DNA of 18,314 bases from a virus (IMGVR_UViG_3300031746_000251); one strand, 5' to 3'; positions 5,767 through 10,319 are shown, counted from the first letter of the stretch. Program-made: numbers and translations. The notes: generated by a model from the sequence alone, not told the origin.

Positions 5767-5973
5767 CTAGAAGCCCTCGAACTGAGTACTCAAGCCCGCG
5801 GCACGTTCTCGTTTCTTCCTCAGCTCCTGCCGCTCCTTCCTCTGCGCTTCGGTCTCGATCCTTGGGGAGCTTGGCGCTGGGGAGCACCTGAGGCAGAGCC
5901 TCCCCTCCTTCATCACCCGCATGTTGCAGCCTGGCTTGCTGCACCGGGGCCATTCCCGCCTTCCGCCCATCAT
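5767..5973 (-). CDS. small zinc-ribbon protein (68 aa)
   Basis: CSKPGC...CLRC (C-x4-C-x12-C-x2-C); high GC3; ATG overlaps upstream TGA (ATGA). Confidence 0.5.
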   Translation of the reverse strand: MMGGRREWPRCSKPGCNMRVMKEGRLCLRCSPAPSSPRIETEAQRKERQELRKKRERAAGLSTQFEGF

Positions 5974-6224
5974 CCCGGCAGGCCCAGCTCGTCGAAGAGC
6001 TCTCCGACCGTCATGTCCCAGCCATCGGCAAAGCCCACGATGTAGCCGATGTGGTACATGGCCCGGGCCATCTCTGGCGGATCCAGCTTCTTCGAGAGCT
6101 GGATGGTCTCGTCCTCGAAGTCGTTGATGAAATCGAGAGCGATGTCGTAGCCGAGCTTCCCCATGGCCACGTCCAGTTCCTCGAGGTGCTCCTGGATGGT
6201 CTGCTTCGTTCCCAGCTCGCTCAA
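5970..6224 (-). CDS. hypothetical protein (84 aa from TTG 6224; alternative ATG 6164 gives 64 aa)
   Basis: TTG overlaps stop of upstream gene (TTGA) with GAAAGAGGGA upstream; ORF-track extension to 6335 overlaps preceding gene out of frame. Confidence 0.5.
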   Translation of the reverse strand: MSELGTKQTIQEHLEELDVAMGKLGYDIALDFINDFEDETIQLSKKLDPPEMARAMYHIGYIVGFADGWDMTVGELFDELGLPG

Positions 6225-6427
6225 ATGAGTCCCTCTTTCTCGGCCCACCACTTCTTTACGATGAGAGTGCCGGTGCTGTTCTCGCTGTCGTCGAAGACCT
6301 CCGAGTCGTCGTGAATGACCGACTTGGGGATCCACACCTCTTCTCCGTCGATCTCGACCAAGAGGGCCATATCCGTGACCCTCTTGGCCGTCACGTCGAA
6401 GAACTCCGCGGTGGTGTCAGAGGCCAC
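6221..6427 (-). CDS. hypothetical acidic protein (68 aa)
   Basis: ORF track; GGAGGAA 5-6 nt upstream of start. Confidence 0.55.
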   Translation of the reverse strand: MASDTTAEFFDVTAKRVTDMALLVEIDGEEVWIPKSVIHDDSEVFDDSENSTGTLIVKKWWAEKEGLI

Positions 6428-6767
6428 GCTTGTTCCTCCATTCTTGAAGTAGCTGCATGTGTCCCTCGAGCTCCATCACCTTGTGGGCGTAGTGCTCCTC
6501 GTTGACCTTCTTCGCTGCCAGCTTCCTCTTCTCGAGGTTGTCCACAGCGGCCGCCGGGTTGAGCTCGAGCTTGGACAAGGTGTTGCCCATGTTCCGGTAG
6601 GCGCCGGCAAGACGGCTGCGGTCGCTCTTCAGCTCGAAGAACGTCTTGCCAGCCTTGGTGACCGTGTACTTGTCGACCACCACCTCGTCCTTGATGGCGT
6701 GGTGGCCGACGTCCACCACCCTGGCCAAGTAGACCACCATGCCGAGGGTCAGGTCCTCCTGCTTCAC
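6417..6767 (-). CDS. hypothetical protein (116 aa), GTG start
   Basis: GTG at 6767 overlaps upstream TGA (GTGA); ORF-track extension to 6923 is out of frame with preceding gene. Confidence 0.55.
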   Translation of the reverse strand: MKQEDLTLGMVVYLARVVDVGHHAIKDEVVVDKYTVTKAGKTFFELKSDRSRLAGAYRNMGNTLSKLELNPAAAVDNLEKRKLAAKKVNEEHYAHKVMELEGHMQLLQEWRNKRGL

Positions 6768-7243
6768 GTCTGGCCCGGCGCCGGCGGAGGAGCGCCATCT
6801 CCGGTGCCAGAGATGGTACGCGTGGTCGGGATGGTGGCGGGGTAGTTGTTGGGGTTGGCCGTGACCACTCCCATGCCGTTCTCCTGGATGAGGTACTTGT
6901 ACTGGTTGTTGGCGAAGACGCACCTCACCAGCTCCTTCATGTCGTCGACGCGCTCCTTGGCGTGCTTCTCCTTCAGCTCCACGATCTCGACGCGGAGGAG
7001 CTTCTTGTCGGCCTCGGCCTGCACCTTGAGCAGCACCTCGTTCTTCTTGTCGAGGTCGCCGGCCCGCTCGAGCTTCGAGTTCAGGTCGCCGATCGTCCGC
7101 CTGGCCTCGATGACCTCCTGATCCAGCAGCTTGTTCTTCTTCTCGAGGTCCTCGGCCTGCTGGAGGCGGACCTTGAGACGGGTGCCGACTTCGGCGTTGA
7201 GGTTCGCGTCGATTGCCTTGCTGATGTCGCCTTCGATGGCCAT
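6764..7243 (-). CDS. coiled-coil protein (159 aa) with internal repeat
   Basis: GAGGGAAG upstream of ATG 7243; heptad-rich; internal duplication AEDLEKKNKLL / AGDLDKKNEVL. Confidence 0.7.
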   Translation of the reverse strand: MAIEGDISKAIDANLNAEVGTRLKVRLQQAEDLEKKNKLLDQEVIEARRTIGDLNSKLERAGDLDKKNEVLLKVQAEADKKLLRVEIVELKEKHAKERVDDMKELVRCVFANNQYKYLIQENGMGVVTANPNNYPATIPTTRTISGTGDGAPPPAPGQT

Positions 7244-7265
7244 GGTCTTCCCTCTGTTGGGGTTA

Positions 7266-8344: not shown

Positions 8345-8826
8345 GACTTCTTCTCCTCCCGGCCGTTGAGGGCCTTGATGATGGGTTCGAGGATCTGCTG
8401 ACCAACCTGTAGCGCTCGTGCCACCTGGGGATCGTCGTTCTTCCCTGCCTGCATCTTGGCCAGGAGATCCTGGTAGCGGGCACCCGGATCGATGTGCTGG
8501 TCTGGGGTCTTCTCTGCGAGGGCCCGCACTGCCTGCGCGAAGTGGTCGGGGACCTTGAAGACGTAGCTCGCGTAGGTGCAGTCGTAGTCGTCATCGAAGT
8601 CTGTGACGAACTGAGGATGGGCACGGAGTGCCGCGGTGACTTCCTCGTAGTCCTCGCGGTTTCCTCCTCCGTTGCGGGTGTAGATGACGATGCGGTCTTC
8701 GCCACCGTCGGTCTTGGTGAGGAAGCAGTCTCGGAAGCGCCCTGTCTCCTCCTTCTCGAGGCCGAGGATGGCCAGGTAGAAGGGCCCCAGCTTGTTGCTG
8801 CCGAACAGCAGGTTGTACATGCTCAT
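8341..8826 (-). CDS. hypothetical protein (161 aa)
   Basis: ATG 8826 overlaps upstream TGA (ATGA); ORF-track extension to 8892 is out of frame with preceding gene. Confidence 0.7.
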   Translation of the reverse strand: MSMYNLLFGSNKLGPFYLAILGLEKEETGRFRDCFLTKTDGGEDRIVIYTRNGGGNREDYEEVTAALRAHPQFVTDFDDDYDCTYASYVFKVPDHFAQAVRALAEKTPDQHIDPGARYQDLLAKMQAGKNDDPQVARALQVGQQILEPIIKALNGREEKKS

Positions 8827-9026
8827 GTCAGTACCTTCGCGACCTGGACGTCGTGCCAGGGCTTGGGGAGGAAACCTCCGGTGAGGATCCACTCGTTCAG
8901 CGCTTCGACGAGCTCCGCCAGGCGGTAGACGTCGTCCAGATCGGGAGGCCCCTCGTTCTGATCTCTGTTGCCGTTGATCCTGGCGACGATCTCGAGCTGC
9001 TCCTTCAGGTTGGCGTCAGGGTCCAT
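8823..9026 (-). CDS. hypothetical protein (67 aa)
   Basis: ATG 9026 shares a base with upstream TGA (TGATG); rest of ORF-track frame to 9281 overlaps HAD gene. Confidence 0.5.
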   Translation of the reverse strand: MDPDANLKEQLEIVARINGNRDQNEGPPDLDDVYRLAELVEALNEWILTGGFLPKPWHDVQVAKVLT

Positions 9027-9517
9027 CAGAAGTGCACCACCTTCCAGCAGTCTGGGGCATGGATGAAGAGACCGTACTCCAAGTACATCTCCTTGTTCCG
9101 AAGGTCGTCGTCGATGAACAACATGGGGCTGTTCGGGTAATGACTGAGCGTCTCGGAGATCTGCCGACACTTGTACTCGACAGAACTGGCGTAGTCCCTG
9201 TCCGGGCGCATGAGGAGAGGCGTGGCATCGAGGCACCCGACCGTGGGGGTCGTGTCGATGCCGAAGTGCGTGACGAGCCACTTCTCCGTGACGCTACGTA
9301 GTCGAGACGGCCGACCCGTCATGATGATGGGAGTGTAGATCTCCGAGCAGCCGAAGATCTCGCTCAGCGCCTCTCGTGCCGCTTCGATGGGCGGGTCAGC
9401 AGCCACCAGGCCCGGGTCGTGGAAGGCGTCCCAGTTCTTCTTGCCAGGCCCCATGACGAAGGGGAGCCTGGCCGAGGCATCCGAGATGGTCCCGTCGATG
9501 TCGATGAAGATGATCAC
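9026..9517 (-). CDS. HAD-superfamily phosphatase (DxDGT motif)
   Basis: N-terminal 'IFIDIDGTISD' (HAD motif I), downstream 'MTGR' (motif II Thr), Lys and 'FIDDD' (motif IV) in canonical order; start codon overlaps upstream TGA (GTGA). Confidence 0.75.
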   Translation of the reverse strand: MIIFIDIDGTISDASARLPFVMGPGKKNWDAFHDPGLVAADPPIEAAREALSEIFGCSEIYTPIIMTGRPSRLRSVTEKWLVTHFGIDTTPTVGCLDATPLLMRPDRDYASSVEYKCRQISETLSHYPNSPMLFIDDDLRNKEMYLEYGLFIHAPDCWKVVHF

Positions 9518-9996
9518 GTCGCACCCTTGGCTGGGAGCAGCAGGCTGCCCAGCTTCCCGGCCTCCGCGATGTGGGAGAGCTTGGGCAGGACCATGTCGCC
9601 GATGGTCTGACCGGAGCTCGTGACGATGTGGGCGAGGAACTCCTCCTCGAACTCTGAGATGCCCGACTCCACGGCCTCGAGCTTCGCCTTCACAACGAGG
9701 GCGAGGGCGCGCCAGCGCCGGCGCATCTCCTGGTCCACCAACGCCTCTGCCTGGCGGTCAGTGCGCTCGAGGTCGTGGCTGCTGTTCTTGCGACGGTACA
9801 TCTTGAATTCCGTGACGCCTGGCATCTTGAGCAGGAAGCGGATACGCCGGCTCTTCATGTCGAACTGCACCATGGCCTGCATGTGGCCCTGGTCCCAGCC
9901 GGACACGAACTGGCTCGCGCCGTAGCGCGTGAGGATCTTCTCGACCTCTGCCTTCGACTTCTCGACGGTGACACTGGTCTTCTCTGCGTAGCTCAT
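9514..9996 (-). CDS. hypothetical protein (160 aa)
   Basis: GAAGGAG 3 nt upstream of ATG 9996; N-terminal extension in ORF track overlaps preceding gene. Confidence 0.7.
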   Translation of the reverse strand: MSYAEKTSVTVEKSKAEVEKILTRYGASQFVSGWDQGHMQAMVQFDMKSRRIRFLLKMPGVTEFKMYRRKNSSHDLERTDRQAEALVDQEMRRRWRALALVVKAKLEAVESGISEFEEEFLAHIVTSSGQTIGDMVLPKLSHIAEAGKLGSLLLPAKGAT

Positions 9997-10319
9997 GGCT
10001 CCTTCTTCTTGGTTGGAGGGTGGAGAACGAGGCGGTATCCGAGCGCCGTTGCCTTGGCGCGAATCTCTGCTACCTGCTCCTCTCTCGTGAGAGGCGGGGG
10101 CGGTGGGGGCAGCTTTGTCTGCCATTCCTGTGGGACGTCCCCTCTACGCATCCTGCGGTCGATCTCAGTGAAGAGTTCCGCCAGGTCCTTCGCCGCGGTG
10201 CGGAAGGAGTCATCAAGATCAACGTCTTCTCCGGGCTCGAAGTTGAAGGCGGCCTCGAGGAACCCCTTGATGCGGGTTGCGTTGAGCCGAGTCTCTCGAA
10301 GAGTGTCGTTGATGTTCAT
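9993..10319 (-). CDS. hypothetical protein with poly-proline tract (KLPPPPPPLT), 108 aa
   Basis: GGAGA upstream of ATG 10319; first gene after hairpin following MVP; 4-nt overlap with next gene. Confidence 0.65.
   Translation of the reverse strand: MNINDTLRETRLNATRIKGFLEAAFNFEPGEDVDLDDSFRTAAKDLAELFTEIDRRMRRGDVPQEWQTKLPPPPPPLTREEQVAEIRAKATALGYRLVLHPPTKKKEP

Follow-up and report, generated by a model that had tools for sequence, protein, structure and literature searches.

The eukaryotic vault combines the shell protein MVP with the minor components PARP4 (bound via its MINT domain), TEP1, and vault RNA. Encapsulins are another shell-forming system, in which conserved adjacency and a shared terminal targeting peptide identify the cargo. 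MVPs have also been described in bacteria of the Myxococcales, Cytophagales, and Oscillatoriales (10.1101/872010) and are known in two gut phages, the flanking genes of which differ between them (10.1101/2023.11.10.566534). Here, we analyzed a DNA stretch of 18,314 nucleotides (nt) from the virus IMGVR_UViG_3300031746_000251 (the window), in which a gene for an MVP homolog is directly followed by a compact block of small genes at positions 10319-5767. An initial annotation of this stretch had proposed that these genes are candidates for the cargo, the chaperones, or an assembly set of MVP, or that they alternatively represent early or middle genes of an unknown virus.

We consider it probable (about 0.8) that the block is a polycistronic set of 12 small non-structural accessory genes (g1-g12) of an approximately 196-kb tailed-phage-like virus, co-directional with the MVP gene and bordered on each side by a conserved hairpin. 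Its position beside MVP appears to reflect a lineage-specific gene order, found in one clade of phages of about 150-200 kb, rather than a functional module. No chain gene tracks MVP across about 160 other loci and the families to which these genes belong are common where MVP is absent, so the proposal of a cargo set is not supported. No qualitative difference was found between the block, which here directly follows the MVP gene, and the small-gene arrays of large tailed phages such as mycobacteriophages and jumbo phages. Both consist of co-directional small genes with start/stop overlaps of 1-4 nt, encode mostly hypothetical proteins, lack morphogenesis genes, show mosaicism through whole-gene gain and loss, and contain families common to unrelated phages (PHROGs 17260, 415, 865, 10081, and 8389). 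The likeness to the eukaryotic vault is limited to the shell protein, whose MVP shoulder and vault repeat exceed the Pfam thresholds here, whereas partner domains, vault RNA, and a co-conserved MVP neighbour are missing. Specifically, no domains of PARP4 (PARP catalytic, BRCT, vWA, or MINT) or TEP1 (TROVE, NACHT, WD40, or TIR-like) were detected in g1-g12 by Pfam (even at E <= 0.1) or NCBIfam, and the whole window yielded 0 Rfam matches of any family at gathering thresholds. As in the shell-plus-cargo operons of encapsulins, a putative shell gene is followed by co-directional genes, but the adjacency is not conserved and MVP does not have the HK97 fold. Moreover, an all-against-all short-query BLASTP search combined with inspection revealed no N- or C-terminal peptide shared among the 12 chain proteins. 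Like the phage MVPs of the Caudoviricetes ctOa11 and ct2Ri15, the protein described here is a tailed-phage MVP closest to bacterial MVPs, with variable flanking genes and no TEP1 or vPARP (10.1101/2023.11.10.566534). In contrast to those gut phages, which are linked to Firmicutes, this phage has a GC content of 62% and an MVP closest to Myxococcota homologs.

The block was resolved into 12 genes, the starts of which were chosen by reading frame, ribosome-binding site, and junction geometry (Table 1). The chain reported by the initial annotation is therefore real, but it comprises 12 genes and not about 13. Overlap or near-abutment had been claimed for every junction; this holds as overlaps of 1-11 nt for 10 of the 11 junctions, but the remaining one (g7/g8) is a 22-nt spacer. 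Read from the DNA, the junctions were of the types ATGA (five), GTGA (two), TTGA (one), and TGATG (two), all of which had been listed, and besides these there was one 11-nt overlap (g9/g10). Coding sequence occupies 4531 of the 4553 nt of the block (99.5%), and each start has a ribosome-binding site within the gene before it, in most cases of the GGAG/GAGG type. No morphogenesis genes were recognised among g1-g12, as had been noted from the outset. Tight packing is not peculiar to the block, since the source gene calls show that the upstream genes and MVP are also joined by overlaps of 1-4 nt. All convincing genes of the window lie on the minus strand. The window also holds 171 open reading frames (ORFs) of at least 40 amino acids (aa) at a GC content of about 62%, the gene finder of the source assembly did not call g12, and g1 is a near-orphan with three matches at E <= 0.001 in an exhaustive HMMER search. 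These observations would fit a chain that is no unit at all, consisting partly of spurious ORFs typical of high-GC DNA, with several genes never expressed. We give almost no weight to this explanation, since the GC content at third codon positions (GC3) is 0.72-0.96 in the called frame of all 12 genes versus an overall GC content of about 0.62, and since the independent calls of the source assembly yielded products of identical length for g1-g11. Furthermore, ten of the genes have either conserved orthologs or large homolog families, and substitutions relative to two related contigs (described below) are biased towards the third codon position in most chain genes. The ORF of g12, its four cysteines (CxxC...CxxC), and its C-terminal FEGF are kept in both of these relatives, and g1 has one full-length homolog that is 61% identical.

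Table 1. Coordinates of the MVP gene, the block of 12 genes downstream of it, and the two flanking hairpins, in order of transcription.
Feature	Position	Strand	Description
MVP	13129-10433	-	898 aa; source gene call has a start giving 889 aa
hairpin 1	10374-10340	-	between MVP stop (10433) and g1 start; 16-bp stem with 11 G-C pairs; z = -4.9
g1	10319-9993	-	108 aa; contains PPPPPP
g2	9996-9514	-	160 aa
g3	9517-9026	-	163 aa; GTG start
g4	9026-8823	-	67 aa
g5	8826-8341	-	161 aa
g6	8344-7451	-	297 aa
g7	7451-7266	-	61 aa
g8	7243-6764	-	159 aa
g9	6767-6417	-	116 aa; GTG start
g10	6427-6221	-	68 aa; GTG start
g11	6224-5970	-	84 aa; TTG start in TTGA overlap
g12	5973-5767	-	68 aa; last gene of block
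hairpin 2	5759-5721	-	13 bp, G/C-rich; begins 8 nt past g12 stop; no clean U-tract

The identification of the upstream gene as MVP was confirmed by matches to the Pfam families MVP_shoulder (E 1.9e-24, 86.4 bits versus a cut-off of 25) and Vault_3 (E 2e-9, 37.9 bits versus 28.8), which mark its product as a genuine MVP homolog at the sequence level, with shell formation being putative. No PHROG family matched this protein. Homologs of MVP were retrieved from three published huge-phage genomes of 462-735 kb, from 228 IMG/VR stretches (53 of the best 80 are on contigs of at least 100 kb, up to 436 kb), and from 434 stretches in GTDB species genomes, mainly Myxococcota (Kofleriaceae, Haliangiales, and Nannocystaceae) with 47-54% identity. 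These matches suggest that viral MVP homologs are far commoner than the two gut phages of the literature would imply. For the comparison of neighbourhoods, 166 MVP loci were used, comprising three huge-phage records, about 80 IMG/VR contigs, and 80 bacterial genomes, each taken as MVP plus up to 10 kb on either side. They include the own contig of the window and duplicate fetches of its two relatives, and about 163 loci are left besides the own contig. When all window proteins were queried against these loci by tblastn, g1-g12 adjoined MVP only in the own contig and in the two close relatives. The sole other match was a g5 homolog with 42% identity that lies downstream of MVP in locus L020, at a distance of about 10 kb. 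Clustering of ORFs within 5 kb of MVP placed the most frequent neighbour family in at most 28 of about 160 loci, and the larger neighbour clusters were contributed by a single set of contigs that are closely related to each other. ORFs resembling MVP seemed to cluster upstream of it, but this proved to be an artefact, with no locus containing two MVP copies. Overall, MVP appears to have no universal neighbour, the chain not being one either, and looks like a recurrent gene of large phages that lacks conserved company.

The initial annotation had named co-conservation with MVP among the checks of a partner set, and this co-conservation was contradicted from both sides, as MVP loci occur without the chain genes and homologs of the chain genes occur in phages with no match to MVP. 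Among cultured phages, g2 homologs were present in 13 records, including those of the Mycobacterium phages MooMoo (gp38), Yoshi, and Sparky and of Leptospira phage LE1 (gp67), and g5 homologs in 6 records, including Xanthomonas phiXF1, Geobacillus E3, and Microbacterium Merry/Sunny. The C-terminal two-thirds of g6 was found in 50 cultured phages, among them Enterococcus phages of about 150 kb, phiCD211 (Clostridioides), and Fnu1 (Fusobacterium). A search for MVP in the same collection hit three huge-phage records only, so the phages carrying g2, g5, or g6 homologs are not MVP-bearing at that sensitivity. Likewise, at the metagenomic loci with chain homologs, no MVP Pfam family was detected among the genes called within 10 kb, which includes a g5 homolog on a 47-kb phage contig, and the loci L008 and L170-L175 gave no tblastn match to MVP. 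A g2 homolog was also found in a prophage replication module together with SSB, Prim-Pol, and UvrD helicase, that of MooMoo lies in an integrase-proximal region, and other phage contigs of about 210 kb have g2 and g3 homologs among genes for ribonucleotide reductase and dCMP deaminase. The 209-kb contig of L174, which carries a g2 homolog, showed no sequence overlap with the MVP locus L013, located on a contig of the same size. On a 210-kb JGI contig (L175, 8392-11599), homologs of u15011, g5, g8, and a g3-type HAD phosphatase stand side by side, the g8 homolog (35% identity) adjoining that of g5. This arrangement points to a small g5-g8-HAD sub-module that may travel jointly and independently of MVP. 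Taken at the level of sequence families, the chain genes are thus seen to occur in many unrelated phages, in regions of replication, nucleotide metabolism, or close to lysogeny genes.

The window represents the last 18 kb or so of a 196,070-bp contig (ENA ERZ27247700 k141_847058; g6 is 100% identical), and 50,697 phage records contained no megablast match to the window as a whole. Two IMG/VR relatives, L003 and L004, are viral contigs of 198 kb and 153 kb with MVPs that are 87-88% identical, and their synteny with the window spans the entire 18 kb. Matches to PHROGs are spread across the window, in which no tRNA or tmRNA was found. The alternative offered by the initial annotation, namely a region of an unknown virus, is supported in the sense of a non-structural region of an approximately 196-kb phage with relatives in IMG/VR; we infer the early or middle timing. 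The host may, tentatively, be a myxobacterium, because the MVP homologs in GTDB are mostly from Myxococcota and because of the GC content. Even among such close relatives the content of the block changes. Neither g1 nor g5 has a match in L003 or L004, where other genes stand in their place, g7 is 75% identical in L003 and is replaced in L004, where it has no match, and extra genes are present in the relatives between g3/g4 and g8/g9. The alignments indicate that the block is mosaic, with whole genes swapped, lost, and inserted exactly at the junctions.

Two hairpins frame this exchangeable content. The one that the initial annotation had described as an attenuator after MVP is indeed present (hairpin 1), and it is followed by UAUCCUUUUGGAG, the GGAG of which is the ribosome-binding site of whichever gene comes next. 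Hairpin 1 is kept in L003 (about 12735-12770) and L004 (about 12730-12765) with one compensatory G:C to C:G swap, and the position directly 3' of it is taken by g1 in the window, by g2 in L003, and by a 127-aa ORF in L004. It is probably a partial terminator or an RNA-stability element at the 5' boundary of the block. The 3' boundary is marked by hairpin 2, both arms of which are kept in L004, with an extra ORF between g12 and the hairpin. As a separate observation, the site of hairpin 1 acts like a fixed "socket" with exchangeable cassettes behind it.

These comparisons also bear on a narrower form of the cargo proposal, in which some of g2, g3, g6, and g9-g12 would be partners of MVP restricted to this lineage, made together with it and packaged in, or assembling, a vault-like shell. 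Such a role would fit genes that are co-directional with MVP and immediately downstream of it, an intervening hairpin whose weak U-tract could allow read-through, the maintenance of MVP synteny in all three members of the clade, and several proteins with unknown folds. However, the three genomes are syntenic over the whole 18 kb, so the linkage is uninformative, and the gene directly after hairpin 1 differs in all of them. Together with the lack of co-occurrence in about 160 other MVP loci, the absence of any universal MVP neighbour, the abundance of the chain families in phages where the MVP search found nothing, and the failure to find a PARP, TROVE, or vWA domain, vault RNA, or a shared terminal peptide, this makes a lineage-restricted partner set very unlikely. 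Nothing in the sequences speaks for a clade-specific role with MVP, and there is a slim chance at best that a smaller subset (e.g., g2, g6, and g9) is co-expressed with MVP through read-through of the hairpin and provides clade-specific cargo or assembly factors for a phage-built vault-like compartment. If this were true, other MVP phages would use different, non-homologous cargo sets at the same position. The main value of the analysis is consequently a negative one, in that the genes downstream of MVP should not be treated as candidate partners of the vault protein. The result suggests either that MVPs of phages and bacteria work without partners or that their partners escape searches based on gene adjacency.

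If the block is instead an accessory gene array of a tailed phage, as we favour, its start-on-stop packing would allow ribosomes ending one gene to re-initiate on the next. The genes would form a single expression unit, served either by read-through of the hairpin after MVP or by a promoter that is undetectable with the sigma-70 consensus, and this expression would precede that of the structural genes. The block would then probably serve host takeover and nucleic-acid handling, for which the candidates would be the HAD phosphatase of polynucleotide kinase (PNK) type, the possible ribbon-helix-helix regulator, the zinc-ribbon protein, and the small OB/SH3-like protein, with several proteins of unknown fold beside them. 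Some points weigh against this interpretation. The MVP loci span only 10 kb on each side of the gene, and, for proteins of 60-110 aa, very divergent homologs may escape tblastn at E <= 1e-3. No function or fold could be assigned to g1, g2, g5, g6, g8, g9, and g11, so that in biochemical terms these may have an MVP-linked role in the lineage. Finally, we infer both the single transcript and the early or middle timing, and no sigma-70-like promoter was found, although the sigma-70 consensus may not be that of the host.

Regarding the individual proteins, the largest families belong to g2 and g6. The g2 protein matched phrog_17260 (E 8e-48) and represents a very large family, well conserved in phages and prophages, with at least 3254 homolog clusters. 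The g6 protein matched phrog_10081, has 231 homolog clusters, and consists of a conserved N-terminal stretch of about 30 aa, a disordered linker of about 45 aa, and a C-terminal helical plus alpha/beta domain. AlphaFold2 models of g2 and g6 were confident, with predicted local distance difference test (pLDDT) scores of 83 and 75, respectively, and no convincing structural neighbours were found for them. PDB sequences were searched with g2, g3, g5, and g6 and, in the case of g2 and g6, also with profiles; nothing significant was returned, and the ubiquitin matches of g5 in such a search were dismissed because they contained zero qualifying stretches. The analysis thereby flags g2 and g6 as two sizeable phage families with no Pfam model or recognisable fold. 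Members of the g6 family are labelled "transposase" in the records of phiCD211, EFP01, and Fnu1; this label was rejected as inherited, given that neither a transposase domain nor a fold match was detected. The family of g5 comprises 213 homolog clusters.

Several of the initial assignments were upheld or supported. The HAD phosphatase corresponds to g3, the translation of which contains the HAD motifs DIDGT, MTGR, and FIDDD and matched phrog_415 (E 1.8e-17), while its score against Pfam HAD_PNKP (18.9 bits) was under the cut-off of 27.6. This combination supports a putative HAD-superfamily phosphatase that lacks a kinase domain and is similar to the phosphatase portion of phage polynucleotide kinase/phosphatase. 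The poly-proline protein is g1, in which the proline run links a helical, g4-like N-terminal domain to a short C-terminal domain. The N-terminal domain appears to be a distant paralog of g4, with P0363 bridging the two. The protein g4 itself is small, acidic, and helical, with matches to phrog_865 (E 1.5e-14) and phrog_5411 (E 2.1e-12). The "HNH endonuclease" label of phrog_865 was rejected for g4 as inherited, since the protein has no HNH or cysteine motif. The coiled-coil protein with repeats corresponds to g8, for which this assignment is plausible from the sequence; it has the internal repeat AEDLEKKNKLL / AGDLDKKNEVLL and a proline-rich tail and is the sole chain gene preceded by a spacer. 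With 54% identity in the relatives and substitutions even across codon positions, g8 evidently evolves fast. The assignment of a ribbon-helix-helix DNA binder fared less well. The basic protein g7 shows the corresponding pattern, a strand (IHCLIP) followed by two helices, but no hidden Markov model of Pfam, PHROGs, or NCBIfam matched it, and it may be regarded as a putative DNA binder on the basis of the pattern.

Towards the end of the block, g9 is basic and 80-86% identical in the relatives, its ortholog in L004 having an ATG at the codon equivalent to the GTG start. The acidic g10 is small and beta-rich, matched phrog_8389 at E 2.5e-7, and showed sub-threshold similarity to S1/OB proteins (Pfam S1, 18 bits versus a cut-off of 22). 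The acidic g11 is 65-70% identical in the relatives. The last protein, g12, is basic, had only weak PHROG matches, and is predicted from its cysteine pattern to be a zinc-ribbon protein. Scans of the chain proteins with NCBIfam and PADLOC returned only noise.

The composition of the block could also suggest an island devoted mainly to counter-defence and host takeover, with, for instance, a 3'-phosphatase that repairs RNA cut by nucleases and small acidic inhibitors or sponges. Compatible with this idea are the rapid turnover of genes at the junctions between close relatives, the many small acidic members (g4, g10, and g11, with isoelectric points of 4.1-4.3), the PNK-type HAD phosphatase, the sub-threshold similarity of g1 to the Acb2/Tad1 hairpin, and the integrase-proximal location of the g2 homolog of MooMoo. 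No chain family, however, reached a curated threshold for a known anti-defence protein. The Acb2/Tad1 match of g1 was rejected at 15.7 bits versus a Pfam cut-off of 27, PADLOC reported nothing relevant, and the window revealed no kinase or ligase that could partner the phosphatase. We consider an island of this kind unlikely, and it would be a sub-case of the tailed-phage accessory block rather than a true alternative to it.

Upstream of MVP, the coupled genes continue (13099-14316, minus strand), so MVP itself is embedded in the same kind of coupled string. Its direct neighbour is a 65-aa ORF with a 4-nt overlap, preceded by a gene whose 198-aa product weakly resembles type II DNA methyltransferases (PADLOC MTase_II, E 7e-7). 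A 77-aa HTH_3 regulator is also encoded upstream. The GC content of MVP (10433-13102) is 65.6%, compared with 58-64% for most neighbours, and its GC3 of 0.94 is exceeded in the region only by that of g6 (0.96). Such values would be compatible with a gene that is highly expressed or was acquired fairly recently from a high-GC host resembling Myxococcota.

Beyond hairpin 2, a 271-nt intergenic stretch, the 3' part of which (about 200 nt) is conserved, leads to a gene for a 334-aa protein (g14). The non-coding leader of about 200 nt upstream of g14 (5496-5700, minus strand) shows roughly the same degree of conservation with L004 as coding sequence, and it contains the palindrome GCCGGACATCCGGC; this leader is a possible promoter or operator region. 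Further along, positions 2317-3474 are gene-poor, with about 770 nt lacking a source gene call and a positive GC skew. This region contains several short direct and inverted repeats and, at 2625-2671, a tandem repeat of 20 nt in 2.3 copies, and it may have a function in regulation or replication.

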